Assembly: GCA_963798215.1 (NCBI GenBank)
Contig: CAWCSP010000004.1
Span: 134,751-198,750 of the forward strand
DNA: 64,000 bases
Origin: an uncultured Acidobacteriota bacterium
Lineage (GTDB): Bacteria > Acidobacteriota > Thermoanaerobaculia > UBA5066
Direction: 5' to 3'
In this document: positions 20,034 to 39,153 of the stretch, piece by piece
Layout: each line of letters begins with the position of its first letter
Numbering within the stretch: the first letter of the stretch is position 1
The notes under the pieces: generated by a model
What the model was told of the DNA's origin: nothing
What the model saw: only the letters and a program-made list of their open reading frames with translations
Database searches by the model: none
Program-made: the position numbers and the translations under genes

Positions 20034-20531
20034 TTGAAGGCACGGCGGAACGGATCGCGGGGCTTCACGCTGATCGAGCTGCTGATCGTCGTCGCGATCA
20101 TCGGGATCATCGTCGCGATCTCCGTCGTGAACATGATCAACGCGATCCAGCGCGCCAAGCAGAAGCGCTCGATGGCCGACATCCGGAGCCTCTCGTCGGC
20201 GCTCGAGGCGTACGCGGCGGACATGAATACCTACCCGGCCGCGGCGGGGTACACGCTGCCGACGGGCCTCTCGCTCCCGACCGGCTCGTTCGGCGCGGCC
20301 GCAGGGCAGCTGAGCCCGACGTACATCCGCGTCGCGCCCCTCCAGGACGGCTGGAACTCCTGGTACCTCTACGGGACGAGCGCCACGCGGACGGATTACG
20401 CCGTGTGCTCGGCTGGCGCCGACGGCGCTCCGCAGTCGTCCCCGTCCTTCGGTCCGACGACCGATTTCAACGCGGACATCATCCTCGTGGACGGCGCGTT
20501 CGTGCAGTTCCCCGACGGGGCCCAGCGCTGA
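20034..20531 (+). CDS. pilA: Type IV pilin / prepilin-type N-terminal cleavage-methylation protein (PilA-like), paralog 1
   Basis: TTG start after an AAAGAGG RBS. Class III signal ...NGSRG|FTLIELLIVVAIIGIIVAI, with the conserved +5 Glu. 165 aa. Confidence 0.8.
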   Translation: MKARRNGSRGFTLIELLIVVAIIGIIVAISVVNMINAIQRAKQKRSMADIRSLSSALEAYAADMNTYPAAAGYTLPTGLSLPTGSFGAAAGQLSPTYIRVAPLQDGWNSWYLYGTSATRTDYAVCSAGADGAPQSSPSFGPTTDFNADIILVDGAFVQFPDGAQR

Positions 20532-21292: not shown

Positions 21293-23609
21293 GTGAAGCG
21301 CGGACTGGCGACCGGACGGACGGCGCTCCTCGGCGGCGCGCTCGGATTCGCTCTCGCGGCCGCCCTTCTCGGTCCCGGCGCGGCGGCCGGCCTCGTCCCG
21401 GCGCGCGGCGATCTCGCCGACTTCTTCTGGCCCATGAAGGCGTACACGGCCGCGCGCTGGGCGGCCGGCAGCCTCGCGCTCTGGAACCCTCTCTCGGGCT
21501 GCGGCGAGCCCTGGCTGGCGCAGCTCCAGACCGGCGTCCTCAACCCGGGCGATCTCCCGTTCCTCCTCCACGGCGCCGCGGGTCCTCTCGTCGCGATCGC
21601 CCTGCACGTCGCGATCGCGGCCGCCGGGATGGCGGCATGGCTCTCCTCCCTCGGCGTCTCGCGCGCGGGCGCCCTTGCGGGAGCGGCGACGTGGGCGGGC
21701 GGCGGCGCGTTTCTATCCCTCGTGCCGGTCTACAACAACTTCGCGACGGCCGCGTTCCTGCCCTGGCTCTTTCTCGGGGCGCGCCGGTCCGCCCGCGGGT
21801 CGCCGCCCGTTCTGTTCGCGCTCGCGGTCGCGCTCGCCTTCCTGGGCGGCGAGCCCGCCCTCGCGGCGGCCGGGTCCTGCGCCGCGGTGGCCGTCGCGCT
21901 CGCGACGCGCCGCGAGGAGCCGTCCGGCGCCGCGCCCCGGCCCGTGCGCGCGGCGCTCCGGGCGGCGGGCGGCCTCGCGCTCGGCCTCGGCCTCGCCGCT
22001 GCGGCGCTGGGGCCGTTCCTCGTCCTCGTGAGGTCGACGGGGCGCGTCTCCGGCGTGACGAGAGCGGAGGCCCTCGCGCGTCCCGTCGGCCGGGCGGACC
22101 TCGCCGACCTCGTGGTTCCGCCCGCGCCTCCCGACGAGCGGCGCCCCGCGCCGGGCCGCGGCGGATACCTCGTGACGCTCGCGCTCGGGCCCCTCCCCTT
22201 CGTCCTCGCCGCGGCGGCGGGCGCGGGGTTCGCCGCGCGCCCGCGCCTCCTCGCGTGCCTCGCCGTCCTCGCCGCGCTCGGCGTCGTCCTCGCGCTCGGC
22301 GCCCGGGGGGGGCTCGTGCCGCTCCTCTGGGACGGCGGGCTCGCGCGCGGCGTCCGCTTTCCGGCGCGCTGGTTCATCTTCGCGCACTTCGCGCTCGCCG
22401 CGGCCGCCGGCGCCGGATTCGACGGCTGGCGCGACGGGCATCTCTTCGGCTGGCCGAAGCGGGCCTCGCACGAGGCCGCGCCGCCGGCGAAGGGGCCGCT
22501 CCTCGTGTCCGCCGCTCTCGCCGCGGGCGCCCTCGGGTTTCTCGTTCTTCTCGCCGCGGCCGAGCACCGCACGCCCGGGGCCGGCGCGTGGGCGGCATTC
22601 GCCGCCGCGGCCGCGGGCTGCGGCCTCCTGTGGCGCGTCCGCGCGCGCCGAGACGCCCTCGCGACGGCACGGAGGTGCCCTCCTCGTCCTCTGTGTCGCG
22701 CTCCCGCTCCCGCTCGGCGCGCGCGACATCTTCGCCGGCGCGAGCGCGGCCGATCTCGCGCGCCCGCCGCGCGCCGTCGCGGATCTGGCGGGAGAATCCG
22801 CAGGCCGCGTCTTTCCGGTCGTGTCGGACGGAGCGCTCCTCGAGGCGTGGCTCCGGTCGGCCGGCGGGTCGTGGACGCCGGACACCGCGCTTCGCGCCCA
22901 CGAGTCGCTCTCGGGGTACGGGTCGCTTTCCGTCGGGCTCGCCTCGGCCGCCTCGCCGTCCCCCATCGGCAACCCCTGGCGCGCGCGCCTTCTGGGAGCG
23001 GCGCTCTCCGGCGGCGACGCGGGAGCGCTTCTCGGTCTTGCGAACGTTCGCCACATCGTGACGCCCTTCCCGACCTCGATGCCGGGCGCGCGGCTCGAAC
23101 TGCGGGCGGGGGAGGTTCTCCGCTACGGCCTCGAGCACCCGCTCGGGCGCGTGTTCTTCGCGCGGGAGACCGTCCTGCTCGGCGACGACGCGGCGTTCCG
23201 CTCTCTCTCGGAGCGCCCCTTCGACCCGGAGGAGCGCGCGCTCGTCGCGCCGGGAGGCGGCGAAGCGGGCGTGCTTCCGCCGCGCCGCGCGGCGAAGGGT
23301 TTCGCGGTCGCCCACGTGACGCGCGACGAGCCCGAGGCGTTCGAGGTCGGGACGGCGGCGTCCGAGCCGACGACGCTCGTCATGACGCGTTCGTGGGACT
23401 CCGGCTGGGAGGCGCGGCTCGACGGCGCGCGCGTCCCGCTCCGGCGCTGCGATCTCGCGCTGATGGCGGTCGCGATCCCCGCCGGCGAGCACCGGCTCGC
23501 GCTCGCGTACCGTCCTGTCGCGTTCCGCGCCGGCGCCGCCGTCTCCGGCGCGTCCCTCCTCGTCCTTCTCGCGCTCGTCCTCGCGGGCGGGAAGGAGACA
23601 CGCGCGTGA
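21293..23609 (+). pseudogene. YfhO-like GT-C fold membrane glycosyltransferase (candidate pilin glycosyltransferase, TfpO/TfpW-like position). Reading frame switches near 22640-22670.
   Basis: GTG start. N-terminal polytopic region in frame 2 (DFFWPMKAYTAARWAAGSLALWNPL, many TM helices). Around 22650 it continues in frame 0 (GGALLVLCVALPLPLG...) and ends with a YfhO-type C-terminal periplasmic motif (WDSGWEARLDGARVPLRRCDLALMAVAIPAGEHRLALAYRP). Total ~772 aa, typical for YfhO. Requires a single-nucleotide indel to read through. Confidence 0.55.
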
Positions 23610-24778
23610 CGTTTCCGGACGCGTTCCTCCTCGCGGTCTTCGCGGCCGTCGGCGCGATCACGGGCTCGTTCGCGAACGTCTGCATCCACCGGCTCCCGCG
23701 TGGCGAATCCGTCGTCCGCCCGCCGTCGCGCTGCCCTGCGTGCGGGACGGGCATCGCCTTCTACGACAACGTCCCGGTCCTCTCGTGGCTCGTCCTCAGG
23801 GGGCGCTGCCGCGCGTGCGGGGCGGCCATCTCGCCGCGCTACCCGCTCGTCGAGGCGGCGGGCGCCGGAATCTTCGCGGCCGCGGCGCTCCTGTGGGGCC
23901 CGACGCCGGTCGCCGCGGGCGGCGCGCTCCTCACGCTCGCGGGGCTGATTCTCGTCTTCACGGACCTCGAGACGCGGACGCTCCCGGACGAGGTCACGCT
24001 CGGGACCCTCGCCCTCGGCCTTCTCGTCGCCGCCGTGAGGGACCGTACGGGGGCGGAAGCGGGCGCGCCGTTCCTTGCCGCCCACGGCCACCTCGTCGAG
24101 GCCGCGCTCGGCGCCGCGGCGGGGGCGGCGTTCCTGGAGCTCGTCCGCCGCGCGTACGCGGCGCTCCGCGGGCAGGAGGGGATGGGCGGGGGCGACGTGA
24201 AGATGCTCGCGATGGCTGGGGCGTTCACCGGGCCCGCCGGCGTCTTCCTGACGCTCTTTTTTGCGTCCCTCGCCGGGACGCTGGTGGCGGGCGGTGCCTC
24301 TCTCGTGCGACGAGCGCGCTGGGCTGCCGCATTCTCTTTCGCGAAGGACGGGGAACGGGCGGGGACCCTCGCGGAGGCGCACGGCCTTCTCGTGCGCCCG
24401 GACGGCCGGGTGGGCGCTGCGGGCCGGAGGTGGCGCGAGGTGCCGGGCGCCTCCGCGCCCGGCGAGCCCGTCTCCGCCGACCGGCGCGCCGCGGGCCGCC
24501 TCCTCGCCTTCGTGCGCCTCGCCCGCCGCCGCGCGTCGGGCGGGGCGCCGAGCGCCTCCGGCCGGATCATCCTCGACGACGGCGCCGACTTCTTCCGCGT
24601 CCTCGCGGCGCGCGCGGCCGGGACGCCCGCGGGTCTCCTCGTCCTCCTCGCGCGCGCGGACGTGCCGTTCGGCGTCTTCCTCGCGGCGGGCGCCGTCCTC
24701 GCGTTCGTCTTCGGGCGTGTCGCTCTGGAGGCTCTCGTGGGCCCGGGTGCGGACCTTCTCTCGAGGCTCCTGCCGTGA
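23606..24778 (+). CDS. pilD: Prepilin peptidase / N-methyltransferase (A24 family, PilD) with ~100-aa C-terminal loop insertion
   Basis: GTGA overlap with the upstream gene. N-terminal tetracysteine motif CPACG...CRACG. Catalytic GGGDVKMLAMAGAFTG motif present. 390 aa. Confidence 0.85.
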   Translation: MTFPDAFLLAVFAAVGAITGSFANVCIHRLPRGESVVRPPSRCPACGTGIAFYDNVPVLSWLVLRGRCRACGAAISPRYPLVEAAGAGIFAAAALLWGPTPVAAGGALLTLAGLILVFTDLETRTLPDEVTLGTLALGLLVAAVRDRTGAEAGAPFLAAHGHLVEAALGAAAGAAFLELVRRAYAALRGQEGMGGGDVKMLAMAGAFTGPAGVFLTLFFASLAGTLVAGGASLVRRARWAAAFSFAKDGERAGTLAEAHGLLVRPDGRVGAAGRRWREVPGASAPGEPVSADRRAAGRLLAFVRLARRRASGGAPSASGRIILDDGADFFRVLAARAAGTPAGLLVLLARADVPFGVFLAAGAVLAFVFGRVALEALVGPGADLLSRLLP

Positions 24779-26550
24779 CGAGCCGCTCGTTCGAGCGGGA
24801 GGTCCGCAACGTGATCGTGGGCGGGCTCGTCACGCTCCTTTTCCTCGCCGGCACGGCGGCGGTCGTCCTCCGCAACACGACGGCGTGGGGCGTGGCCGAG
24901 ACCGAACGTCGTCTCGCGCGTGAGACGCGCACGGCGGCCGCCGCGTTCGCGGCGACCGCGAGCCCGGCCCGCACGCTCGCCGACGACGTCGGTCCCGGGC
25001 GGGTGCTCGGCGAGAACGGGGCGCGGAGCGCCGCGCTCTACGACGCCCACGGAGCGCGCGTCGCGGACGCACCGTACCTCCCCGGCGCGGGCGAGGCCCC
25101 GGCCCGGCTCGACGCCGCGGACCTCGCGGTGGACGCGGCGCTTCTGCGCGACGGGCCGGCCGGGCCCGTCGTCCTCGCGCCTCTCCCGGGGACGGGCCAG
25201 ATCCTGCGCGTCGCGTGGAACGACCCGGCCGTCGCGGCCGCGCGCCGGAACGCCCGGATCGTCCTCGTCGCGATCCCTGCCGCGGCCACCGTGCTCGTCG
25301 TCCTCGTCGTCCCGTTCCTGAGGCGGCTCATGGCCCCGATCGACGCGATCGCCCAGACGGCGCGCGGTGCCGGCGACCTCGTCCCCGAGGTCGTGGCCCG
25401 CTCCGCGCGCGACGAGGCCGAGGGCGCGGCCGAAACGTTCGCGCGGACCGTCGACACCCTCAAGAAACGCACGGAAGAGCTCGAGGAGCTTCGCAGGACC
25501 GAGCAGCGCCGGGCCGACGCCCTCGCCGTGACGGCCGAAACCCTCGTGCGCTCGCACCCGGGCGGCCTCCTCGTCGTGGACGCGGGGGGCCGTCTCGCCG
25601 AGGCGAATGCTCCCGCGCGCGCGGTCCTCGACCTCCGCCCGGAGGACGTGGGCCGGCCGGCCGCCGACGCGCTGGCTCACGTCCCGGCACTTGCGGCCGC
25701 CGCGGAGCGGGCGCGCGCCGGCGCGCCGACGCTCTCGACGGAGATCGCGGTCGGCGACGGCGCCGACGCACGCGTTTTCGAGCTCATCGGCGTCCCGATC
25801 CTCGACGCCTTGCAGAACGTGCTCGGCGGTGTCCTGTTCGTCGAGGACCGGACCGAGACGCACCGGCTCGAGCGCGAGGTGTCTTCCCGGCGCGAGCTCG
25901 CCGCGCTCGGCGAGATGTCCGCGGGAATCGCGCACGAGTTCCGCAACGCGACGGGGACGATCCTCGGCTGGGCGCGCCTCGCGGCGCGGACGGACGACGC
26001 CGGCGCGCGGGCAAGGCACCTCGCGGCGATCCAGGCCGAGGCCGAGCACGTCGCGCGCGTGACGGGGGACTTCCTCTTTTTCGCGAGGCCCGAGCGGCTC
26101 GAGACGGCCCCGTGCGACCTCGAGGCGCTCGCCCGGGAGATCGCCGCCGAGCAGAGGACACTCACGCCGGGCGTCGACGTGTCGGTCGGCGGGTCCTTCG
26201 AGGCCGCGCTCGCGGACGCGGCGCTCGTGAAGCGCGCGCTCGTGAACCTCGTCAAAAACGCGTGCGAGGCGGCCGCCGACCGCCCGGGCGGGGGCCGCGT
26301 CCTCCTTTCCGGGGAGGGGGCGGCGGCGGGAACCGTCCGCGTCGCCGTCGAGGACGACGGACCCGGCGTGTCGGACGAGGCCGCCGCCAAGCTCTTCGTC
26401 CCGTTCGCCACGACCAAGGAGGCGGGCACGGGCCTCGGGCTCGCGCTCGTCGCGAAGATCGCGGCGCTCCACCGCGGAAGCGTCTCGGCCGGAAGGTCCG
26501 CCGCGCTCGGCGGCGCCCGGTTCGTCCTCTCCCTGCCCGCCGCCGGCTGA
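24775..26550 (+). CDS. Sensor histidine kinase (2 TM, PAS, HisKA, HATPase_c; PilS-like)
   Basis: GTG start overlapping the pilD stop. HisKA H-box (LGEMSAGIAHEFRNATGTILGW). N-box (LVKNACEAA). G-boxes (EDDGPGV, GTGLGLALV). Confidence 0.75.
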   Translation: MTSRSFEREVRNVIVGGLVTLLFLAGTAAVVLRNTTAWGVAETERRLARETRTAAAAFAATASPARTLADDVGPGRVLGENGARSAALYDAHGARVADAPYLPGAGEAPARLDAADLAVDAALLRDGPAGPVVLAPLPGTGQILRVAWNDPAVAAARRNARIVLVAIPAAATVLVVLVVPFLRRLMAPIDAIAQTARGAGDLVPEVVARSARDEAEGAAETFARTVDTLKKRTEELEELRRTEQRRADALAVTAETLVRSHPGGLLVVDAGGRLAEANAPARAVLDLRPEDVGRPAADALAHVPALAAAAERARAGAPTLSTEIAVGDGADARVFELIGVPILDALQNVLGGVLFVEDRTETHRLEREVSSRRELAALGEMSAGIAHEFRNATGTILGWARLAARTDDAGARARHLAAIQAEAEHVARVTGDFLFFARPERLETAPCDLEALAREIAAEQRTLTPGVDVSVGGSFEAALADAALVKRALVNLVKNACEAAADRPGGGRVLLSGEGAAAGTVRVAVEDDGPGVSDEAAAKLFVPFATTKEAGTGLGLALVAKIAALHRGSVSAGRSAALGGARFVLSLPAAG

Positions 26551-26554
26551 GAGC

Positions 26555-27679
26555 TCAGCCCGGCGCGGGCGCCCCGGACGACGGGCGGGCGGCGGTCTTC
26601 GCCCGCTTCTCGACGAGTCCCTTGAACTGGTCCTTGTCGAGCGACTTCTCGTAGGCCTCGTCGGGCTCGACGATGCCGGCGACGACGAGGTCCGCGAGGC
26701 TCTGGTCCATCCCGATCATCCCGGACGTGCGGCCGGTCTGGATGAGCGTCCCGATCATCGCGGTCTTGCCCTCGCGGATGTTGTTCGAGAGCGCGGACGA
26801 CCCGCGGAGCACCTCGAACGCCGCGACGCGCCCGCCGCCCTTCTTCTTGAGGAGGACCTGCGCGACGACGCCCTTGAGGACCTCGGCGAGCACCGTCCGC
26901 ACCTGCTCCTGCTCCTCGGCGGGAAAGCTGTCGATCAGCCGGTCGACGGCCTTCGCGGCGGAATTCGTGTGCAGCGTCCCGAAGACGAGAAGCCCCGTCT
27001 CGGCGGCCTGGAGGGCCATGGACATCGTCTCGAGATCTCGCAGCTCGCCGACGAGGACGACGTCCGGGTCCTCGCGGAGCGCGGCCTTCAGGGCGCCCGC
27101 GAACGTCGGGGTGTCGAACCCGAGCTCGCGATGCGAGATGAGGGACTTGTTCGGTCGGTGGAGGAACTCGACCGGGTCCTCGATCGTGACGATGTGGGAG
27201 GCGCGCGTGCGGTTGATCCAGTCGAGGAGCGCCGCGAGCGTCGTCGACTTGCCCGAGCCCGTCGGCCCGGTCACGAGGACGAGGCCGCGCGGGATCCGCG
27301 CGACGTTCGCGACGAGCGGCGGGAGGCCGAGCTCCTCGATCGCGAGGACGCGCGGCGGGATCATGCGGAGGACGGCTCCGGAGCCGTGCTCCTGGCGGAA
27401 CAGGTTCACGCGGAAGCGCGCGATCTCGCCCATCGCGTACGCGAAGTCCGTGTCGCCCGTATTGCGCCACTCGCGGAGCGGCTTCTCCGGCGCGATCGGG
27501 ACGATCAGGCTCTCGTACTCCTCCTCGGTCAGCGTCCGCCACTTGAGGCGTTCGAGGTCGCCGTCCACGCGCACCATGGGCGGCGAGCCGACGGCGAGGT
27601 GCAGGTCCGACGCCTTCTTGTCGACCATGATCCTGAGGAGCTTGTCGACGCGGTTGACGCCGGCGTGGAGCGAGCTCAT
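26555..27679 (-). CDS. pilT: Type IV pilus twitching-motility retraction ATPase PilT
   Basis: 374 aa. Walker A (GPTGSGKST), Asp box (ITIEDPVEF), Walker B (LVGELRD), His box (GTLHTNSAAKAVDRL), and the AIRNLIRE-like motif (ALSNNIREGK). Confidence 0.9.
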   Translation of the reverse strand: MSSLHAGVNRVDKLLRIMVDKKASDLHLAVGSPPMVRVDGDLERLKWRTLTEEEYESLIVPIAPEKPLREWRNTGDTDFAYAMGEIARFRVNLFRQEHGSGAVLRMIPPRVLAIEELGLPPLVANVARIPRGLVLVTGPTGSGKSTTLAALLDWINRTRASHIVTIEDPVEFLHRPNKSLISHRELGFDTPTFAGALKAALREDPDVVLVGELRDLETMSMALQAAETGLLVFGTLHTNSAAKAVDRLIDSFPAEEQEQVRTVLAEVLKGVVAQVLLKKKGGGRVAAFEVLRGSSALSNNIREGKTAMIGTLIQTGRTSGMIGMDQSLADLVVAGIVEPDEAYEKSLDKDQFKGLVEKRAKTAARPSSGAPAPG

Positions 27680-30198
27680 TCGAGGGCCTGCCTTTCCTCG
27701 GCGACCATCTTCTCGAACGGCTCCTTCTTGACGGCCTTCTCCATCGCGAGCTCCGGGTCCACCTTCCCCTCCTCGCAGAGCTTCAGGAGGGACTGGTCCA
27801 TCGTGCACATCCCGGCGAGCTGGCCGGTCTGGAGCGCGGACGGGATCTGGTGCGTCTTGCCCTCGCGGATCAGCGCCGCGACCGCGGCCGTCGTCCGGAG
27901 GATCTCGAACGCGGCGATGCGCCCTTCGAAGCCGCGCCGCGGGAGGAGCGCCTGCGAGATGACGGCCTTCAGGGAGTCCGCGAGCATGACGCGGATCTGT
28001 CCCTGCTGGCCGGGCGGGAACGAGCTGATGACGCGGTCGACGGTCGCGGGCGCGTTCGTCGTGTGGAGCGTCCCGAGGACGAGGTGGCCCGTCTCGGACG
28101 CCGTGATCGCGAGGGAGATCGTCTCGAGGTCGCGCATCTCGCCCACGAGGATGACGTCGGGGTCCTCGCGCAGCGCGGCCTTGAGGGCGCGCGCGAAGGA
28201 GGCCGTGTGGTGCGGCACCTGCCGCTGGTTCACGAGCGCCTCCTTGTTCGCGTGGACGAACTCGACCGGGTCCTCGACCGTGATGATGTGGCAGGGCCGC
28301 GTCTCGTTGATCCGGTCGATGAGCGCCGCGAGCGTCGTGGACTTGCCGCAGCCCGACGGCCCCGTCACGAGGACGAGCCCCTGGGTGAGCTTCATGATGT
28401 CCGCGACGGTCGCGGGCGGGAGGCCGATCTCCTCGATCGTCGGGACCGTCCTCGGGACGACGCGGAAGCACGCGTCGAACCCCCCGCGCTGCGAGAAGAA
28501 GTTCGCGCGGAACCGGCCGAGGCCGGGGAGCTTCAGGCAGACGTCGATCTGGCGCTCCCGCTCGAGGCGCTTCCAGTCGTCCTCCGGGAGGACTTCCCGG
28601 ATGAGCTGCGAGGCGCGGGCGCGCGTCATGACGGGGGCGTCCACGGGCTCGAGCGCGCCCTGCTGCCGCCGGTGCGGGACGAACCCGGTCGCGAGGTGGA
28701 GGTCCGAGGCGCCCCTCTTGACCGTGTCCGCGAGGTACTCGACGAGCCGGGCCGAGTCGTTCCCCGCGAGGTCGACCGTCTGGACCTCGGCCTCGACCTC
28801 GGGCAGCGCGTCGCGCGCCTCGGTCCCCTTGAGGACGCCGACGAGCCGGCGGGCCTTCTCGCGCACCTTGCCGTCGAGAGCGGGCATCTGGGACACGCGC
28901 GAGCAGATCCCCGCGATCTGGGTCTGCATCTTCTCGTCGGTCGCGAGCTTCGCCATCGCGTCGAGGATCTCCATCTGGACGTCCGGCTGCGTGACGGCGG
29001 CCTTGAACGCGTCGAGGAGCGGCTGCGCGGCCCGGGGGTCGCCGAGGTCGCCGAGCGCGGACGCGGCCGGGATCGCGAGCTCCGGGTCGCGGATGGCCGA
29101 AAGGAGGCGCGCGAGGACGGCGTCGTCGCCCTTGCCGAGGCGGCCGAGCGTCTCGACCGCGCGCGTCCTCACCCAGATGTCCTTGTCGTCGACGAGGGAG
29201 ATCCAGATCGGAAGCGCCTTGGCGTCGGCGAGGGCGAGCGTCATTTCGGAAGCCGCTTTGGCGAGTGCGGGATCGGCGTCGCGCGTGAGCTTCAGGAGCG
29301 CGTTCACGAAGCCGGGGAGGCCGTCCCGGGCGGTCTCGACGGCGCGGTCGCGCACCCAGACGAACGAGCCGCGGAAGTGCTCGAGGATCCGCCGGGCGAG
29401 GAGGTCAGGCGCGTAGGGCAGGAGGAGGCCGACCGTGCCGGTCCTCACCAGCGCGTTCCCGTCCGCGAGGAGCGGGACGATCTCGGACGTGTGGTCCTGC
29501 TTGGCCGAGAGGAGGAGCTTCTTGAGCGCCGCGAAAGACGCCTCCATGACGCGCCCGCCGGCGGTCCGGGCCATCTGGAGGACGTCGGGGAAGTAGCTCT
29601 CGTTCGGGTTCTTCTCGAGGACCGCGAGGGCCGAGAACCGGATCTCCTCGTTCTCGTCCTGCAGGAGCGGAACCGCGAGGCTCGCCGCGACGTCCGCGCT
29701 CCCCTCGAAGGACATCTCGCTGACGGCCTTCAGGGCCCGGGCGCGCACCGCCGGGTTCGAGGCGGTCAGGACGCGCCGCGCGATGTCGAACGCCGTCTGC
29801 GCCGGCAGCTCGCGCGCGAGCTCGAGGGCCGCGAGGCGGGCGAAGTCGTCTCCGCGCGACGCGATCTCCTGGAGGAACGGCGGGAGCTGGGGGCCCGCGA
29901 GGTCCTTCAGGAAACGCATGACGGCCCGCCGCACGGCCTCCGACCGCGTCTTGAGCATCGGCACGAGCGCCTCGAGTCCCGCCCGGTCGTGCCGCCTCTT
30001 GAGGATCGCGAGACCGGCGGCGCGGATCTCGGGGACCTGGTCGACGGCGGTCCACGCGACCCATTCGACGTCCGGCTTCGAGAGCGACTGGAACTTCTCG
30101 AGGAGGCCGTTCCGCTGTTCCTCGCTCGACCATTTGTGCTCGCGGAGCTGCGCGACGAACGCCGGCTCGGATCGAAGAGAGCGCAGCTTCTCTAACAC
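27676..30198 (-). CDS. PilT/PilU-family ATPase with ~470-aa N-terminal HEAT/PBS-lyase-type repeat domain (fusion)
   Basis: 840 aa, GTG start. Residues ~1-470 form repeated alpha-helical HEAT-like units (e.g. DKDIWVRTRAVETLGRLG, DPELAIPAASALGDLGDPRAAQPLLDAFK). The C-terminus carries a full PilT ATPase core (GPSGCGKST, ITVEDPVEF, LVGEMRD, GTLHT). No PilB-type tetracysteine motif. ATGA overlap with pilT. Confidence 0.8.
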   Translation of the reverse strand: MLEKLRSLRSEPAFVAQLREHKWSSEEQRNGLLEKFQSLSKPDVEWVAWTAVDQVPEIRAAGLAILKRRHDRAGLEALVPMLKTRSEAVRRAVMRFLKDLAGPQLPPFLQEIASRGDDFARLAALELARELPAQTAFDIARRVLTASNPAVRARALKAVSEMSFEGSADVAASLAVPLLQDENEEIRFSALAVLEKNPNESYFPDVLQMARTAGGRVMEASFAALKKLLLSAKQDHTSEIVPLLADGNALVRTGTVGLLLPYAPDLLARRILEHFRGSFVWVRDRAVETARDGLPGFVNALLKLTRDADPALAKAASEMTLALADAKALPIWISLVDDKDIWVRTRAVETLGRLGKGDDAVLARLLSAIRDPELAIPAASALGDLGDPRAAQPLLDAFKAAVTQPDVQMEILDAMAKLATDEKMQTQIAGICSRVSQMPALDGKVREKARRLVGVLKGTEARDALPEVEAEVQTVDLAGNDSARLVEYLADTVKRGASDLHLATGFVPHRRQQGALEPVDAPVMTRARASQLIREVLPEDDWKRLERERQIDVCLKLPGLGRFRANFFSQRGGFDACFRVVPRTVPTIEEIGLPPATVADIMKLTQGLVLVTGPSGCGKSTTLAALIDRINETRPCHIITVEDPVEFVHANKEALVNQRQVPHHTASFARALKAALREDPDVILVGEMRDLETISLAITASETGHLVLGTLHTTNAPATVDRVISSFPPGQQGQIRVMLADSLKAVISQALLPRRGFEGRIAAFEILRTTAAVAALIREGKTHQIPSALQTGQLAGMCTMDQSLLKLCEEGKVDPELAMEKAVKKEPFEKMVAEERQALE

Positions 30199-30385
30199 GT
30201 CGTCCCGCTCTCCATGCTCCCGCTATCGTAGCCGACGCCCGCCGCCCGCCGGCGGGCGGCACCGGCGGGCGTTCCCTTGTGTAACGAAAAGTGTCAGCTG
30301 GCCGAGGCTCCGCCGCCGGGCCTGGCGCGGGCCTCCCGGAACAGACCTTTGTGAGACAATGAGTTGCGATCCGAAGTCCGGCTCC

Positions 30386-30399
30386 GGCACGAACCTCGC
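30386..30399 (+). promoter_or_regulatory. Weak candidate sigma-54 promoter upstream of the minor-pilin operon
   Basis: cGGCACGaaccTCGCg has GG/GC at the canonical spacing, but the -12 element is TCGC rather than TTGC, and it is very close to the start codon. Confidence 0.2.
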
Positions 30400-30419
30400 G
30401 TAGAAGGGAGCGGGAATCC

Positions 30420-31211
30420 ATGGCGATGAGCGTCCGAAGGACCTGTTTCCGGCGTGCACACGGACCGTCCGCGCGGGCGGCGGGACGCGGCTTCTCGCTC
30501 GTCGAGCTCCTCGTCGTCATCGCGATCCTCGGGATCCTCGCGATCGTCGGCGGCCGGTCGATCCTCAGGGCGTGGCAGCGCCAGGAGCTCTCGAGCGCGG
30601 CGATGGACGTCAAGGTCCTCTTCCAGCGAGCGCTTCCCGAGATGCAGCGCCGCGGCATCACGACCTTCGTCCAGGTCGGCCCGCTCGTGAACAACGCCTC
30701 CGTCCGCTACATCCCGATCTACCTGATCGGAGACGCGAACGGGGACGGCCAGGTCACGGCCGGCTTCGCGAACCCGGCGCCGGTTGGCGGCGACCTCCTG
30801 ATCGACGAGTACGACGTCATCGTGCTCGGCAAGACCGGCGTGAAGGGCGTGACGGGCGCGTCCCAGAACTTCTGCCTCTCCGTCGACGACATCACGCAGG
30901 TCCAGTCCAGCCGCTGGCTGACGGCCTCCGTCGCCTGCTCCTCGCCCCTGGTTCCACCGTTCTGCGACTCGAACGACTGGACGGTTGGGCGGGCGCTCCA
31001 GTGCGACTTCCAGGGGCGCGCGATCGACACCGGCACCGGCCTCCAGCTCGCCGGGCCGGCGGAGCTCGTCCTGACGCACGTGGGCGTCGTGAGCGGGGCC
31101 TTCCAGCCGCCGACGCGGTACGTCCTCAGCATCAACCCGGTCTGGAGCGTCAGGATCCAGAAACAGGTCAAGGACGTCTCGAACACCTGGGTGGACCAGC
31201 TCGGTGGGTGA
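30420..31211 (+). CDS. Minor pilin / pseudopilin (FimT/GspH-like), prepilin-type N-terminal domain
   Basis: ...AAGRG|FSLVELLVVIAILGILAIVG class III signal with Glu+5. 263 aa. Confidence 0.7.
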   Translation: MAMSVRRTCFRRAHGPSARAAGRGFSLVELLVVIAILGILAIVGGRSILRAWQRQELSSAAMDVKVLFQRALPEMQRRGITTFVQVGPLVNNASVRYIPIYLIGDANGDGQVTAGFANPAPVGGDLLIDEYDVIVLGKTGVKGVTGASQNFCLSVDDITQVQSSRWLTASVACSSPLVPPFCDSNDWTVGRALQCDFQGRAIDTGTGLQLAGPAELVLTHVGVVSGAFQPPTRYVLSINPVWSVRIQKQVKDVSNTWVDQLGG

Positions 31212-31215
31212 CACG

Positions 31216-31764
31216 ATGAGACGGCGCACGCGCGGCTCGAGCTTCGTCGAGGTCCTCCTCGCGATGACGATCATGGCGCTCGTCCTCGTCGGGATCCTCC
31301 AGATGTTCTCGGTGTCCCTCGTGATCAACAAGGGATCGGCCGCGCGCACGCAGATGCTCTTCAAGTGCCAGCAGGTCGTCGAGAACATCCGGTACTTCTA
31401 CTTCCTGCAGCGCAGCAGCATTCCGACGCCGGCGATCCTGACGGACACCGGCCACCTGGCGTCCGGCCCGATGGCGGTCCCCGGCACGCTTCCGGTCCCG
31501 CTGAAATGGGACGTGGACCAGACTTTCCTGCCGTACGTGGCCACGGACGCGACCTGGGCCTACTGGGGACCGACGGGGGCCAACGTCGTCGAGCAGGAGA
31601 ACGCCCCGTACAAGCTCTCGTACACGATGCAGCAGGACCTCGTCCAGAACGTCTGGGTGGTCACGGTCTCCGCGATCCCGACGGACGTCGCGACGGCGAC
31701 GCGCTACTTCGGCATCGGCCTCCAGAGCGGCAAGAGGGTGGACTATGTGGCGCAGTTCCAGTAG
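31216..31764 (+). CDS. Minor pilin (PilV/GspI-like)
   Basis: MRRRTRGSS|FVEVLLAMTIMALVLVGILQMF prepilin-like N-terminus. Start placed at the ATG just after the upstream stop. Confidence 0.6.
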   Translation: MRRRTRGSSFVEVLLAMTIMALVLVGILQMFSVSLVINKGSAARTQMLFKCQQVVENIRYFYFLQRSSIPTPAILTDTGHLASGPMAVPGTLPVPLKWDVDQTFLPYVATDATWAYWGPTGANVVEQENAPYKLSYTMQQDLVQNVWVVTVSAIPTDVATATRYFGIGLQSGKRVDYVAQFQ

Positions 31765-33055
31765 GCGCCGCGCGCGCCCGCGGGGATTCACGCTCCTCGA
31801 GGCGATGGTGTCGCTGCTGCTCCTCGTGATCGTCCTGACCGTCGCGATGTCGATGCTCTTCCAGATGCGCGCCTTCGCCGAGCGGCAGCAGTTCTACATG
31901 CTCCCGCGCCAGACGGCGCGCCGGGCCACGGACTACCTCTCGTACTACATCGCCTCGGCGACGGACCTGAACGAGTGGACGACCCCGCGCACGAGCCCGA
32001 ACGCGCTCGTCATGTACTACAACGTCGGCGCGCCCGGCGTCCCGGTCCAGGCCTCGTACGACAACCTCGACGGGACCGAGGCGGGCAACGCCGTCACGGT
32101 GCCGAACGTCTCGACGAAGTTCGGAGACCTCGGGACGGACGTCATCACGCTGTTCGCGCCGACGAACCCGGCGAAGTACCTCGCGGCGCCGACGTTCGGG
32201 GGCCTCGGCTCGAACATCGACTTCTATTTCAATTTCCGCCAGGGCTGCGCGACGAACGACACCGATAACCTCGCCGCGTTCAAGACGGCGACGGGCTTCG
32301 ACGGCACGCAGAGCGCGCTCCTCATGCTCTCGGACATCAAGGGGGACTGGATCTACTTCCAGATCCCGGCCTCGGGCTACAAGGCGGACGGCCTCTGCTC
32401 GGACGTGACGACGTACAAGAACATCCACGTGGTCGCCGACACGCAGTCGGCCGCGCTCCCGGCGCCGCCGAACGGAACGACCGGCCTCGTCGATCCGGTC
32501 TCCCTCGTCACGGGCGTCCAGGTCATCTCGTTCCGCGTCCTGACGGATCCCACGGACAACGTCCCGAAGCTCCAGCAGAAGCTGGGCCTCTTCGACCCCG
32601 CCACGGACAACCCGGGGACCGCCTTCGTCAACGTGATGGAGAACGTCGAGGACCTGCAGATCACATACGTGTACGCCCTCGAGCCCGTCCTGGGCGCCGG
32701 GACGTTCTGGAACACCGCGACCAACGACCTCCGCACGACCGGCGCGGCGACGGGCGTGCCGCCGCAGGCCGGGCCCACGGCCGCGCCCGGCGGGACGGAC
32801 ATCACGAACGTGATCGGGATCCGCTTCTCGGTCACCGCCCGCTCGCCGCGGCTCGGCCTCGGGGCCCAGGGCCTGACGGACGTGCGCAGCACGGAAAACC
32901 TCGCGACGACGACGAGCCAGCACTTCCGGCCGGCCTCGGAGAACCACCCGGTCTCGATGAACCCGATCTCCCCGGCGCAGCCGGCGTACGACCTCTTCGA
33001 CCACTACCGCGCGACGGCCATGCTCATGCTGCGCAACCGGACGCTGGGGAGCTGA
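31745..33055 (+). CDS. pilW: Type IV pilus assembly protein PilW-like minor pilin
   Basis: ...[32 protein letters not shown]. 436 aa, a size typical for PilW. Overlaps the upstream gene. Confidence 0.7.
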
Positions 33056-33057
33056 CG

Positions 33058-33723
33058 ATGAACGAACGCGGCAGCGCCCTCGTCTCGGTCATCCTCGTCC
33101 TCCTCGTCCTCACGATCGTGGGCGTCGGGATCGCGTACTTCACGTCGATGGAGGACCGCCTCTCGGGCAACACCCGCATCGCGAAGGCGGCCTTCTACGC
33201 CGCGGACGCGGGCCTCCGCCGGGCCGAGCTCGCCCTGAGCGACACGGCGGGGCTCAAGAGCGCGTGCACGCCGATCACGCTCACGCAGATTCTCAGCACG
33301 GGCGCGACCCCGACGCTGAGCGTGCCGGGCGGCGGCAACCCCGCGATCCCGCTCGACCTCACGGGAGCGGCGTTCACGCAGGCGGACTGTCTTCCGGCCA
33401 CGGACCAGATCAACTACCTCGGCATTCCGGTCCCGGTGGTCGCCGCGACGCCGGTCGTCGACCGTGCGACGTACTCGATCTACGTGCGGAACAACATCGA
33501 CGACGCGTCCGGCTCGGCGACGCTCGACAGCGACAGCATGATCAACATCGTGTCGGTCGGAACGATCCAGCTCGTGGCCGGCACCTCGGTCACGCGCATC
33601 CTCGAGGAGCAGCTGCTCCTGTCGCCGGGCGGCTCGTTCGGCGGCACGCAGAAGGGCCTCGAGGCGGGGGGCACCAACGCCGTGCAGAGCGGACAGAGGG
33701 GCCTGAACGCGGGGAACCCATGA
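33058..33723 (+). CDS. pilX: PilX-like minor pilin (PilX N-terminal domain)
   Basis: [38 protein letters not shown] matches the PilX_N consensus (MxxxRGxALVxxLLxLxVLTxxG). Confidence 0.7.
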
Positions 33724-36700
33724 CGACGAAGCGGCTTCCCTTCCGCATTCCCGGGTGGCTCCGGCGCGCCTGCGCCGTCTTCCTGCTCGGCGTGATGGCC
33801 TTCGGCGGCGCCGGGTCCGCGCGGGCGGCCGCGACCGAAGGGTACGACCCTCTCCGGCAGATCACGGCCCAGGTCCTCCGCGCGAACCTCCTGATCCTGC
33901 AGGACCTCAGCGGGTCGATGAAGTGGGATCTCTACCAGGACCAGCTTCTCGAGGCAGAAGACTCGACCGGCCGCCTCGTCTGGATGAGCACGTGCGTCGG
34001 GCCCAACCCGGGGCCGACGCCGACGCCGACGGCGACGCCGACGCCGACGGTGACCCCGACGGTGACGCCGACGGCCACGAACACGGCGACGGCCACGCCG
34101 ACGGCCACGAGCACGTTCACGGTGACGCCGACGGCCACGACCACGAACACGCCGACCCAGACGTACACGGTGACGCCGACCACGACGCCGACGCCCACGG
34201 ACACGGCCACGGTGACGCCGACGGCGACGCCGACGGCGACGTTCACGGCCACGCCGACCGTCACGAACACGCCGACGAATACGCCGACGACGACGGCGAC
34301 CCCCACGCCCACGGACACGAAGACGATCACGCCGACGCCGACGCCGACGGTCACGCCGACGGTCACGCCGACGGTCACGATCACGCCGACGGTGACGAAC
34401 ACGCCGACGGTCACGAAGACCTTCACGCCGACGATCACGCCGACGATCACGCCCACGCCGACGGTCACGCCCACGGTCACGATCACGCCGACGAAGACGC
34501 CGACGGTCACGCCGACGAAGACGCCGACGGTGACGAAGACGCCGACGAAGACGCCCACGCGGACGCCCACGATCCCGCCGACGAGCACCTACACGGCCAC
34601 GGTGACGCCGACGGCGACGAAGACGCCGACGATCACGCCGACGGTGACGCCGACGAGTGACGCCGACGATCACGCCGACGGCGACGATCACGCCGACGAT
34701 CACGCCGACGGCGACGCCGACGATCACGCCGACGCGGACGCCGACGTCGACGAACACGCCGACGGTCACGCCGACGTTCACGCCGACGATCACGCCGACG
34801 AGGACGCCGACGGTGACGCCCACGGTGACGCCGACGATCACGCCGACGCCGACGATCACGCCGACGGCGACGCCGACGCCGACGAAGACGTTCACGCCGA
34901 CGATCACGCCGACGGCGACGGTGACGCCGACGGTGACGCCGACGGCGACGAGGACGTTCACGCCGACGTTCACGGCGACGAAGACGTTCACGCCGACGAC
35001 GACTCCGACGATCACGCCGACGATCACGAACACGGCGACGCCTTCCCCGACGGTGACGCCGACGGCCACGAAGACGTCGACGCCGACCGTGCCGTCGCCG
35101 ACGCCGACGGCGACCGTGACACCTACCAAGACGCCCACCGCAACCGTGACGCCGACGGAGAAGGTCGATCTGGAGCTGCCGCGGAACCCGCTCGTCAGGC
35201 CCGGCGGAGCGCTCGAGGAGCGCTGGGCATCCGCCCAGCCGCTCGCGACGCCGGCGCCGAAGTGGGGCCTCCCGCAGCCGGTCGCCGTCGTCGCGATGGG
35301 CGGCGGGGCGGCCGCCCAGTTCGGCATCGCCGCGCTGCTCGTGCAGGCGACGCCGACGCCGACGCCGTGGCCGACGGACCCGTCGACCGGCCTTCCGGAC
35401 GCGGGCTGCCACCAGTGGCGCTACACGCTCCACTGGGACCGCCCGTCGCGCCTCGCGACGCTCAAGAACGCCCTCGGCAACTCCGTGACGATCTACAAGA
35501 ACTTCACGGCGCCGGGCGGCGGAGCGCAGGCCGACTGGCCGGACCCGATCGTGCACAGCATCGACTGGACCGGGGCGCCGAACGCCGGGCGCGTGGAACT
35601 ACGCGTCGCCGCCCGCGGCCGCGGGAACGACGTTCGCCTACGACCACGACTGCGACGACCCGGTCAAGGGCCCGGCATGCGGTTCGCTCCCGCAGGTGGG
35701 CCCCGACGAGAAGCCCGGCATCTGGTACGAGGCCGGCTACGTCGCGCGCGTCCTCGTCGGTGGCCCCTCGTGGGACTACCCGAACCACTACGGTTCCCCT
35801 GGGCCGCCCCGGATCTCCGCGGCCACGGACCCGCAGGGCGTCGTCGTCGACTGGCAGTGGACGCTGAACTACGGCTACGGCCCGAACAACGAGGTCATCT
35901 ACGGCCTCGACCCCGGACCGCCCCTGCCTGTCTACGACATGACGACCGACGTGGGCGGCGCGTTTACGGGCTTCGACGGCGGGTCGATCCCCGGAATCAC
36001 GGGCACGCCGCTCGACTTCCCGAGCACATGGTTGACGTTGGGCGGGCTCGCGATCGGCGATCCGCCGGCCACCGGTCCCGGCACCGGCGGCGCCAACCAG
36101 CCCACGTGGAGTACATCCCTGCCGGCGGACGTCGTCGGGATCACGCGGAACCAGGTCAACTGGGGCCTCATGACGTTCCAGGACAAGTCCGCGCTCCCGA
36201 ACCCGCTGGCCTGCACGGACGACGTCTCGAACTACGACGTCAAGGTGCCGATCGTGTCGGACGACTCGGGCGACGTCTCCGCGATCGAGGACTACCTGCG
36301 CCTGAAGTACCAGTCTGGCGGCCCGCATCCGGGCCTGTCCGCGAGCGGCGGCACGCCCACGAAGCGCGCGATCAAGCTCGCGGGCGACAGCATCACGACC
36401 TCGTGGAACGCCGACCCGAAGAAACAGTGCCTCCGGCCGTGGGGCATCATCCTCTGCACGGACGGGCAGTCGAACACGTGCAACACGGGCAGCCCGTCGG
36501 CCGACGACGTATGGGGAGCGAACGGAAACCCGGCCTGCGAGGCCGACATCGCCGGGAGCGACTATCTGAACTACCCGCCGGGGGCCGCGGAGGCCGTCTA
36601 CAACCTGAGGCTGCAGTTCGGCGCGGGTGACATCATCAAGCCGCGCACGTACGCGATCGGGATCGCGCCCGAGGTCGGCCGCTGCGAGCTGGACCGCATC

Positions 36701-39153
36701 GCGTATCGCGGGCGTTCGGACGCGCGTGCCCCCCGGGGCGACGCGGGCTTCCTCCTCTACGACCCCAATGTCCCCCCCACCACGTGCGCCCTCGTGGGTG
36801 ACGCGGACCTGCCGCACATCGACCCGCCCACGCTCGACGAGAGCGCCGCGACGCCGGACCGGTTGCGACAGGACAACGGCGGTGCGGGCCCGTACGACTC
36901 CACCAAGCCCGACTACGCCTTCTTCGCCCTCGACACGACTTCGATCGTGAACGCGTTCCTGCAGATCGTGGCCGCGACCGCCGCCGGCGACTACTCGACG
37001 AGCGCGCCCGTCTCGGGCGGAGGCGTCTCGCTGGGCTCGATCGTCCTCCTGCCGTCCACGGAGTACCCGAGCTGGAAGGGCCACCTCCGGGCCTACGACA
37101 CGTCGAGCGGGACGAACGTCCTCAAGTGGGACGCCGCGGACGTCCTCAACAACCCGACACAGCCCTGGCAGCCCACGCCGGACAAGCGCGCCATCTACAC
37201 GTGGGACCCCGCGACCGGGACGCTGATCCCGGTGACCGCGGCAAACCTCGCGTCCCTGGTGGGGCTGGCCGGAGGGGACCCCGCGTTCACGGCGAACGTC
37301 GTGGACTTCATCCGCGGCTTCGACGGGACGCTCACGAACACGCCGCGCTTCAAGGCGGGGACGAACGCGTGCGACTCGACCGGATGGCTGCTCGGCCCCG
37401 TCGTCAACTCGACGCCGGCCGTCGTCGGCGGGCCGTACCAGTACAAGCAGTTCGGAAACGTCGCCGACCACCGGCCGTTCGAGGCCGTGTACGCGGCGCG
37501 CCGGCCGCTCGCGTGGGCAGGCTCGGACGACGGGCTGCTTCACGCCTTCGACTTCAACGACGGGACCGAGGTGATCGCGCTCCTGCCGCCGAACCTGCTC
37601 GCGAACGAGATCAAGCTCTACGCGAACTACGTCGCCGGGATCCCGATGAACGAGTACGTCACCGGCCAGGTGAGCCCGCTGGACCAGCACATCTGGGGCG
37701 TCGCGAACTCCCTCCGCTTCACGGACGTCTACTCTTCCGGGTTGGCCAGATGGTACCGCGGCCGGCTACAAGACGGTCGGGCTTCCTGACGGAAGGGCCC
37801 GGCGGCGACCTCATCGCCGCGATCGACGTCACGCACGTCTTCCCGGGGTACCCCACGGCGACGCCCCCGGTCCCCAACGACCCGAACTACGACTCGTCGA
37901 ACCCGGTCACGATCCTCTGGACGAAGAACTCCTCCGACTACACCGGCCTCTTCGGAAGCTGGAGCGTCCCGGCGGTCGCGGCCGACAACTTCTCGACGAA
38001 CCGGATGTTCTTCGGCGCGGGCATCAACCCGGCCAGCCTCCTGACGGCCTCCGTGGACGCGACCGCGTTCGTCGTCGACCCGACGGACGGGACCCTCAAC
38101 CACGCCGTCACGCTCACGAAGGTCGCGTCGCCCTCACCGCTCGTGGGCCAGCAGTCGTTCGCGGACGGCGTGTTCTTCCAGACCAAGGCGCCCGGCTACC
38201 TCCCGGACAACATCGCGGACCTCAGCCTCACGGCGGACCTCAACGGCCAGATCTGGTTCAACTGGAAGAACGGGGGGGCCGACTTCTCCGGAGCGCTGAG
38301 CTCGGCGGTCGGCATCGACCTCAACTCCGCGTCCGGCACGGTGAACGTCTTCACCACGGACTCGAACGGCATCACGACGGTGACGTCCGGCGCCGCCGGG
38401 CCGGCGTCTCCGCAGCCCGACTATTACTCTCCCGCGGCGACGGGTCAGGGGACGTCGGGCTGCCAGATCTACGCGATGGCGAGCGGAAGCCTCTACGAGA
38501 CGAGCCCGACCGTGTCGGGCTGGAACGTGAACCGCAGCGGCTCTCCGCCGTCCCCCTACGACTCCTCGCTGCCGGTATTCACGCCGTACCTCTACGTCGG
38601 CGTCGGCCCGAACAAGATCGGGGACCTCGCGTTCGGAGCGGCCCCGCTCGGCAAGGACCCGAACCAGCAGTACATCCTGAAACAGCGCATCGGCGGGGAG
38701 GTCCCGGACGCGATTCCGCTCCCGCCGGGCGATCCGGCGCTGGCGACCGGCCAGACGAAGCTCGGGCCGCGCACGCAGGTCACGTCCTCTCCGATCATGG
38801 TCGTGGACAGCACGGGCACGGGAGCGGAGAACGCGATCTTCCTGCTGTACGACCCGGACACGGGCTGCAACGGGACGTCGTACGTCGTGATCCTCACCTT
38901 CCAGTCCGGCACGGCGTGCACCGCGCCCACGATCGGGCCCGCGTCCGGCTCGCCCAACACGACGGGAATCGTGGTCCTGGGCGCCGGCCCCGGCGCCGCC
39001 AGCGGCATCACGTTCACGAACACGGGTCTCGTCGCCGCGCAGAGCGGCGTCGGTCCGACCGCGAGCGCGAGCCTCGTGTCCATCGGCATCGACATCAAGG
39101 CGCTCGCCGGGGTGCCGACCTTCCAGCCGGTCTGGTGGAGGGACGTGAAGTAA
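33720..39153 (+). pseudogene. pilY1: PilY1-like type IV pilus tip adhesin with ~385-aa Thr-Pro tandem-repeat linker. Coding sequence is split over four frame segments (about 3 frameshifts).
   Basis: ATG at 33720 (TGATG overlap with pilX), signal peptide. A TPTx repeat runs in frame 0 to ~34653 and continues in frame 1 from 34657, with an extra A in ACGCCGACG[A]GTGACG. Around 35585 it switches to frame 2 (...[12 protein letters not shown]...). This segment carries a vWA-like ILCTDGQSN motif and the PilY1 beta-propeller signature AGSDDGLLHAFDFNDGTEV. Around 37760 it switches to frame 1 (...GPGGDLIAAIDVTHVFPGYP..., the PilY1 C-terminus), ending at 39153. Confidence 0.7.
34005..35158 (+). repeat. 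Codon-periodic tandem repeat (ACG CCG ACG NNN)n encoding a (T-P-T-x)n linker inside pilY1
   Basis: ~1.15 kb of imperfect 12-nt units ([16 protein letters not shown]...). The same DNA read out of frame gives the D/H/A-rich pseudo-ORF. Confidence 0.8.

Follow-up and report, generated by a model that had tools for sequence, protein, structure and literature searches.

A PilT-class ATPase with an N-terminal HEAT-repeat arm is paired with a His-box-variant PilT in Thermoanaerobaculia

Retraction ATPases of type IV pili (T4P) are usually described as bare two-domain hexamers. Where the genes of two PilT-family ATPases are neighbors, as in the PilT/PilU tandems (Pseudomonas, Vibrio, Neisseria, and Myxococcus PilU), both ATPases are expected to act on one machine: PilU works via direct interaction with PilT (PMC6762196), and an accessory retraction motor depends on direct contact with the primary motor (PMC6762196; PMC13584747). 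Tandem PilT paralogs are also known from M. xanthus, where MXAN_6705, adjacent to MXAN_6706 as inferred from their consecutive locus tags, has the longer N-terminus and deletion of MXAN_6706 causes a partial motility defect (PMC13584747). PilB, GspE, and MshE, for their part, carry an accessory domain and then a flexible linker ahead of the core formed by the N2D and the C-terminal domain (CTD). Here, we analyze a 64,000-nucleotide stretch of contig CAWCSP010000004.1 from an uncultured member of the Thermoanaerobaculia (hereafter, the window), which encodes a PilT-class ATPase fused to an N-terminal HEAT-repeat arm (HEAT-PilT) and, directly after it, a second PilT (Table 1). The HEAT-PilT family bears on how retraction ATPases find and hold the pilus base and on how paired motors such as PilT and PilU cooperate.

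By sequence, the ATPase core of the fusion protein belongs to the PilT (retraction-type) class. Residues 485-830 align with the N2D plus CTD core of PilT, as known from P. aeruginosa (3JVU/3JVV; E 1.5e-95 to 3jvu) and Geobacter (6OJX), and Pfam T2SSE spans residues 488-754. The NCBIfam model TIGR01420 (pilT_fam) matched residues 485-825 at 432.7 bits (cutoff, 319.1), covering model positions 2-341 of 343. All motifs by which the PilT/PilU family is recognized are present, namely Walker A, the Asp box, an atypical Walker B with the catalytic Glu, and a two-His box, and each lies where the original prediction, which had claimed a complete PilT/PilU hexameric ATPase core, had placed it. The AIRNLIRE position near the C-terminus reads AVAALIRE, identical to PilT at five of eight residues and retaining an ALIRE remnant, and Walker A differs from that of PilT in carrying a Cys (GCGKST). 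This Cys is typical of Thermoanaerobaculia-type fusions, all of which have it in place of the usual Ser, and it also occurs in some distant ones; several distant fusions have Ser, and the partner PilT of the window reads GPTGSGKST, the usual form. Among solved structures, the core scored 324.7 bits to P. aeruginosa PilT (3jvu) and 219.7 bits to PilU (9n32), a protein without a structured N-terminal domain. Because the core scores higher to PilT than to PilU, the earlier suggestion of a PilU-like accessory motor is usable as a description of role but not of family membership.

None of the hallmarks of PilB/GspE-type extension ATPases was found. Pfam detected no T2SSE_N/MshEN (PF05157) domain in the fusion protein, and its seven cysteines (432, 554, 577, 617, 636, 798, and 808) include no CxxC pair and no tetracysteine Zn motif. 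Scores to the PilB model TIGR02538 (145.6 bits; cutoff, 675.65) and to TIGR02533 (140.2 bits; cutoff, 630.25) were far under the cutoffs, and the core, unlike that of PilB, falls in the PilT clade. The predicted lack of the PilB-type GSPII and tetracysteine features is borne out by Pfam, NCBIfam, and the cysteine positions.

What sets the protein apart from PilT is its N-terminal half. Members of the PilT/PilU family are two-domain proteins of ~345-390 amino acids (aa) with no further N-terminal domain; the fusion protein, at 840 aa, carries ~484 extra N-terminal residues that comprise a HEAT solenoid and a linker. Pfam HEAT_2 matched four stretches in this half at 87.5 bits (cutoff, 27.7), and HEAT and HEAT_PBS also match. 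AlphaFold2, supplied with a 33-sequence alignment, modeled residues 9-465 as 29 helices without strands, followed by an unstructured stretch (466-484) and the PilT fold. Both a model above its cutoff and an α-α hairpin solenoid fold, the marks of HEAT repeats, are present, and the HEAT/PBS-lyase-like N-terminus of the original prediction holds as an all-alpha solenoid, albeit with ~14 hairpins in place of ~12 units. Modeled alone, residues 1-485 reached a predicted local distance difference test (pLDDT) score of 90.3 and a predicted template modeling (pTM) score of 0.72. The full chain reached a mean pLDDT of 84.3 and a pTM of 0.54, and the lower pTM of the full-length protein fits two bodies on a flexible tether. 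Conservation was lowest in the linker (1.67 bits), compared to 2.68 bits in the arm and 3.33 bits in the ATPase. Pfam, NCBIfam, and AlphaFold2 agree on an N-terminal HEAT domain fused to a complete PilT-type core, as had been proposed; it is firmly shown that the ATPase is of the PilT class and that a flexible tether joins it to a folded HEAT arm.

The order of accessory domain, flexible linker, and N2D-CTD is that of PilB, GspE, and MshE; unlike in these proteins, the accessory domain is a HEAT solenoid rather than GSPII or MshEN, and the tetracysteine Zn site is absent. With a solenoid and linker ahead of N2D, the architecture lies outside the standard T4P ATPase types, as first suggested. 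The N-terminal extension of MXAN_6705 is predicted to be disordered, in contrast to the folded solenoid of HEAT-PilT. Bacterial PBS-lyase-type HEAT proteins (CpcE/CpcF, NblB, and E. coli YibA) and the derived alphaRep designs share the repeat type of the arm at 13-29% identity, but in the fusion protein the repeats are joined to a motor ATPase. Among the HEAT-arm matches, none indicates a specific function, and nothing suggests that the arm has a bilin-lyase function.

Because the window is ~72% GC, open frames are plentiful in all six frames, and GC content at the third codon position (GC3) was therefore chosen to recognize genes. The fusion open reading frame (ORF) has codon-position GC values of 0.72/0.45/0.97, the pattern of genuine genes in this window, with GC3 at 0.97 along its entire length. 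GGAGAG lies 9-14 nt 5' of the GTG start, and translation from position 30198 runs for 840 aa without a break. Consistent with the predicted single fused ORF, the window copy has no internal stop or frameshift, and independently assembled genomes from many samples preserve the frame. Every related locus listed by tblastn has one unbroken 840-aa frame except L032 and L036, both long-read metagenome-assembled genomes (MAGs) with several frameshifts, and loci outside that listing have an intact stop-to-stop ORF of ~849 codons.

HEAT-PilT is firmly shown to be a diverse, conserved family and not a rarity; all members come from uncultured organisms. A word-indexed search retrieved ~100 full-length relatives of 837-843 aa that are 55-96% identical; the named ones come from Thermoanaerobaculia or Acidobacteriota MAGs, annotated only by machine and under the generic name "PilT/PilU family type 4a pilus ATPase." The same search yielded distant proteins of identical architecture at 32-43% identity. 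The fusion was also sought in other genomes, as the original prediction had proposed. A genome scan with a single N-terminal arm sequence, the reach of which is close relatives, identified 29 contigs from 28 species-level MAGs, all Thermoanaerobaculia/Acidobacteriota, at 70-96% identity, with CAWIUK010000010.1 being the closest to the window. With phmmer, 1.84 billion cluster representatives (metagenomic proteins clustered at 50% identity) were searched exhaustively, which added at least 35 clusters that align end to end (query ~13-835) at 33-42% identity, with lengths of 814-980 aa. Against eight close relatives, the ratio of nonsynonymous to synonymous substitution rates was 0.11-0.17 for the HEAT arm and 0.09-0.14 for the ATPase, which indicates purifying selection on each domain.

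The gene downstream of the fusion is equally constant. A short PilT (354-390 aa) is encoded directly after it, at -14 to +52 nt from the fusion stop, in eight of eight divergent lineages (L001, L002/3, L004/5, L006, L008, L040, L041, and L046) that share 32-62% identity with the window protein; the other neighboring genes vary among them. Two adjacent, co-inherited PilT-family genes form a paired module in all eight. The extended protein comes first, the reverse of the gene order in the PilT/PilU tandem. In the window, the predicted stop-start coupling was confirmed as gaATGAgc at 27676-27679. The downstream gene had been called a canonical pilT; TIGR01420 does identify it as a PilT (437.9 bits), but the first His of its His box is replaced by Leu, and the loss of this residue makes it an atypical one. 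In a neighbor-joining tree, the fusion cores formed one clade and the partners grouped apart, with matching lineage branching orders in both. An unlabeled 390-aa PilT (P0235) that fell among the partners sits directly after an 824-aa HEAT-PilT, with a 4-nt overlap. We take fusion and partner to be co-transcribed and translationally coupled and to have long been inherited together as a gene pair. Obligate pairing of the fusion gene with a His-box-variant PilT is firmly shown.

Both histidines of the His box matter in P. aeruginosa PilT: the H222A variant reduces twitching, slows retraction, and comes off the machine more often, and H229A abolishes twitching and lowers ATPase activity (PMC10187167). 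The second His of PilB touches the γ-phosphate (bioRxiv 10.1101/082750). McCallum et al. report that, in the closed interface, T221 of one chain touches H230 of the neighboring chain. Within the HEAT-PilT/PilT pair, the two His boxes have degenerated in complementary ways. The first His is replaced in the partners of eight of nine lineages (by L, L, L, F, V, M, T, or I), and some partners are also altered at the Thr preceding it (ESG, EKG); the second His is retained in every partner examined across the nine. The exhaustive search supplied 136 other PilT-like domains for comparison; the first position is His in 131 of these and another residue in 5. Fusion clusters show the opposite pattern, with ETGH kept in 41 of 41 and the second His replaced by N, Q, P, or M in 17; alignment rows of relatives likewise include some with S or N at this position. 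Fisher tests against the other PilT-like domains gave p = 2.8e-9 and 9.4e-5, values uncorrected for shared ancestry. In the window pair, the fusion protein has both histidines, and the loss is limited to the first His of the partner. No complementary His-box degeneration is described for PilT/PilU in the literature searched.

Second-His variants include P0127, P0129, P0132, P0134, P0138, P0141, P0142, P0144, and P0145. Lineage L041 (8781-10929), which belongs to a 919-aa HEAT-PilT subfamily, has two short PilT genes after the fusion. Because the first of these retains ETGH, the His-box rule may be confined to the ~830-aa subfamily.

With moderate confidence, we read the pair as a two-component retraction motor, comparable to PilT/PilU, in which an accessory ATPase with a built-in docking arm works with the partner PilT. 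The T4P surroundings in the window speak for this reading: minor-pilin and PilX_N genes lie divergently upstream of the pair, genes for a pilin, PilD, and a histidine kinase lie downstream, and a sigma-54 response regulator gene is nearby. As the fusion is always encoded directly ahead of a second PilT, the two are probably a retraction pair that would share one machine in the manner of PilT and PilU. In this genome, no catalytic motif is missing from the ATPase core; from this and from homology, we infer that the fusion protein would hydrolyze ATP as a PilT-type hexamer. The ~465-residue arm and ~20-residue linker occupy the N-terminal spot of the adapter domains in PilB, GspE, and MshE. The arm may bind a protein partner, and HEAT arms may serve as docking surfaces by which the motor pair is held or placed at the base of the pilus or on a regulator, giving a retraction ATPase the built-in adapter it normally lacks. 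The altered His box may in turn make the partner dependent on the fusion protein.

Several observations weigh against this interpretation. Both the hexamer and its ATPase activity are assumptions based on homology. A conserved patch was sought on the HEAT arm, and conservation proved nearly uniform, with the 'VR..A' helices just slightly higher; an obvious binding patch is absent, and because conservation is so evenly spread, no binding site can be named. The tree carries no support values. Among the large ORFs of the 64-kb window tested with Pfam, none encodes PilB, PilC, or PilMNOPQ, and beyond the Thermoanaerobaculia the pair does not adjoin pilus genes.

Possible, though rather unlikely in our estimation, is an obligate asymmetric mixed hexamer in which fusion (F) and partner (P) alternate in one ring, F3P3. 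In such a ring, the interchain Thr-His contact that closes the ATP site would survive only at every second interface, where the Thr-His of F (ETGH) would pair with the second His of P, and three HEAT arms would project to dock the ring to the pilus base or a regulator. The complementary His-box degeneration, affecting the first His in eight of nine partners and the second in 17 of 41 fusions, speaks for this arrangement, as does the fact that the degenerating residues are those that touch across chains (T221-H230, McCallum et al.). Translational coupling favors 1:1 synthesis, and single-chain PilT-PilT tandem fusions exist in metagenomes, although these may not be orthologous to the HEAT-PilT/PilT pair. 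Degeneration in the window pair is minimal, however, and experiments on V. cholerae PilT/PilU argue against hetero-hexamers (PMC6762196).

Three further explanations, a purely regulatory arm, a role outside type IVa pili, and an artifact, are progressively less likely in that order. A regulatory or sensor arm, by which the HEAT domain would mainly switch the motor, through autoinhibition that a ligand protein relieves or through receipt of a second-messenger effector, rather than anchor it, appears improbable. The flexible tether would let the arm fold back, and, judging from the many members that lack the second His, some copies may be weak enzymes and possible regulators; in this genome, however, the catalytic motifs are complete. 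Signaling genes do adjoin the pair, encoding GGDEF/EAL or GGDEF proteins in two distant loci and GAF proteins or histidine kinases in two others, but they are not conserved between lineages. We know of no nucleotide-binding role for HEAT_2 repeats, which also counts against this explanation. The docking of c-di-GMP or another effector, raised in the original prediction, is unsupported, its sole hint being the GGDEF/EAL neighbors of the pair at those two loci.

We consider it very improbable that the pair serves a type IV filament other than the type IVa pilus, or a process unrelated to it, or that the fusion protein is an extension motor. In favor of such a role are the N-terminal adapter position, which resembles that of extension ATPases, the absence of a PilB gene from the window, and the lack of linkage to pilus genes beyond the Thermoanaerobaculia, where, because of this lack, the T4P link comes from family membership only. 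Unlinked pilT genes are nonetheless commonplace, the pilT gene being commonly separate from other pil genes. The PilB and GspE models are far under their cutoffs, the PilT family model is over its own, and the Zn tetracysteine motif is missing. Within the Thermoanaerobaculia clade, moreover, the pair is firmly shown to sit inside a pilus locus: both in the window and on the 2.18-Mb contig of a 62%-identical relative (L001), where the layout is the same, it lies among pilin, minor-pilin, and PilD genes. An artifactual fusion, in which a frameshift or misassembly joined a HEAT gene to a pilT gene, is effectively refuted, for the database entries that resemble stand-alone HEAT proteins (P0095, P0103, P0096, P0066, and P0093) are out-of-frame gene calls with Arg/Ala/Pro-rich ends, and the intact 840-aa frame in independent assemblies, the length held at 814-980 aa in at least 35 clusters, and the GC3 over the whole ORF all contradict it.

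Taken singly, the ATPase, the repeat type, and the concept of paired retraction motors are already known; what is new is a retraction-class motor that combines a structured adapter arm with an invariant partner and complementary His boxes. We found no description of the HEAT-PilT fusion or of the paired arrangement in the literature searched, nor of any N-terminal accessory domain on a PilT-type ATPase (HEAT, WD40, or second PilT domain). The family offers a natural case of a retraction-type motor with its own large arm, predicted to act in docking, that is genetically locked to a second PilT with a complementarily degenerated His box. If either the tethering arm or the mixed ring is correct, it would provide a concrete, testable model for motor recruitment and the division of labor between paralogs, applicable to the Thermoanaerobaculia, an abundant uncultured soil lineage. 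An F3P3 ring would further add a class to the motors of type IV filaments, as the first PilT-like ATPase found to be hetero-hexameric in nature.

Our survey showed that N-terminal accessory domains (HEAT, WD40, and second PilT) recur on PilT-type ATPases in metagenomes. Proteins with tandem PilT-like domains in one polypeptide (708-1024 aa) include P0122, P0123, P0124, P0126, P0128, P0130, P0140, and P0148; several have degenerate first-domain motifs (LTGH; GNRGSGRSC in P0148), and P0123 has DUF4388 at its N-terminus. PilT-like ATPases with other N-terminal extensions are frequent (P0193, P0163, P0176, and many more). P0193 (937 aa) has a seven-blade WD40 propeller, and other PilT-like proteins have extensions of 120-570 residues without assignment.

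Table 1. Features of the HEAT-PilT locus and its surroundings, with positions numbered from the start of the window
Feature	Position	Strand	Details
Type IV pilin-like gene (N_methyl plus T2SSG)	20049..20531	+	Pfam
Prepilin peptidase PilD (A24_N_bact plus Peptidase_A24)	23600..24778	+	Pfam; true start probably farther downstream
PAS histidine kinase, convergent with pilT	24802..26550	+	Pfam
Partner PilT, 374 aa	26555..27679	-	49% identical to fusion ATPase core; TIGR01420, 437.9 bits
Partner His box, residues 227-238	26966..27001	-	ETG-L-LVFGTLHT (ETGLLVFGTLHT); first His replaced by Leu, second His kept
HEAT-PilT fusion gene	27676..30198	-	840 aa plus stop; GTG start at 30198; full-length homologs 55-96% identical
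Stop/start overlap ATGA (gaATGAgc), fusion TGA and partner pilT ATG	27676..27679	-	Sequence
PilT-class ATPase core (N2D plus CTD), residues 485-840	27679..28746	-	TIGR01420, 432.7 bits; best solved match 3jvu, E 1.5e-95
Fusion His box, residues 702-713	28060..28095	-	ETGHLVLGTLHT; both histidines present in window copy
Walker B, residues 679-690	28129..28164	-	DPDVILVGEMRD; catalytic Glu E687; motif alignment
Asp box EDPVE, residues 642-646	28261..28275	-	Motif alignment
Walker A GPSGCGKST, residues 613-621	28336..28362	-	Motif alignment
Flexible acidic linker, residues 466-484	28747..28803	-	No secondary structure; lower pLDDT; isoelectric point 4.05
HEAT solenoid, residues 9-465	28804..30174	-	29 helices, ~14 hairpins; bacterial HEAT_2/PBS-lyase type
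Divergent intergenic region shared with minor-pilin operon	30199..30419	.	No sigma-70-like match
Divergent operon: three N-methyl-motif (minor pilin-like) proteins plus PilX_N protein	30420..33723	+	Pfam; arrangement also in L001
Sigma-54 response regulator	41382-42743		Pfam

Around the pair, a promoter and terminator scan of positions 26300-30600 found nothing over shuffled expectation. The convergent stop codons of the histidine kinase (+, ending at 26550) and pilT (-, ending at 26555) lie 4 nt apart, too close to accommodate terminators between the genes, and none was detected there by the scan. PilB-like matches P0104-P0108 were considered as the PilB of the same genomes and rejected, as their accessions differ from those of the Thermoanaerobaculia MAGs. 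Genes for c-di-GMP turnover (PAS-GGDEF-EAL, REC-GAF-GGDEF) adjoin the pair in L002 (13603-15891), L003 (7678-12126), and L004 (12030-14438), and the window encodes a 7TMR-DISM GGDEF protein at 4848-6566, ~21 kb from the pair; such neighbors are not conserved family-wide.

Downstream of the pair and convergent with it, as are the pilin-like, PilD, and PAS histidine kinase genes, a gene for a YfhO-like membrane protein (21293-23609, +) changes frame between ~22378 and ~22692, with homolog residues 28-351 in one frame and 436-720 in another; the L001 homolog is a single 739-aa gene. The change could mean that the gene is a pseudogene, that the assembly contains an indel, or that a divergent insertion is present. 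Three ORFs of the pilus locus without Pfam matches, at 35696-37789 (+), 33932-34588 (-), and 40469-41359 (+), are well supported by GC3 values of 0.92-0.98, and the 697-aa protein among them follows the minor-pilin/PilX_N operon, a spot where a PilY1-like protein is often found.

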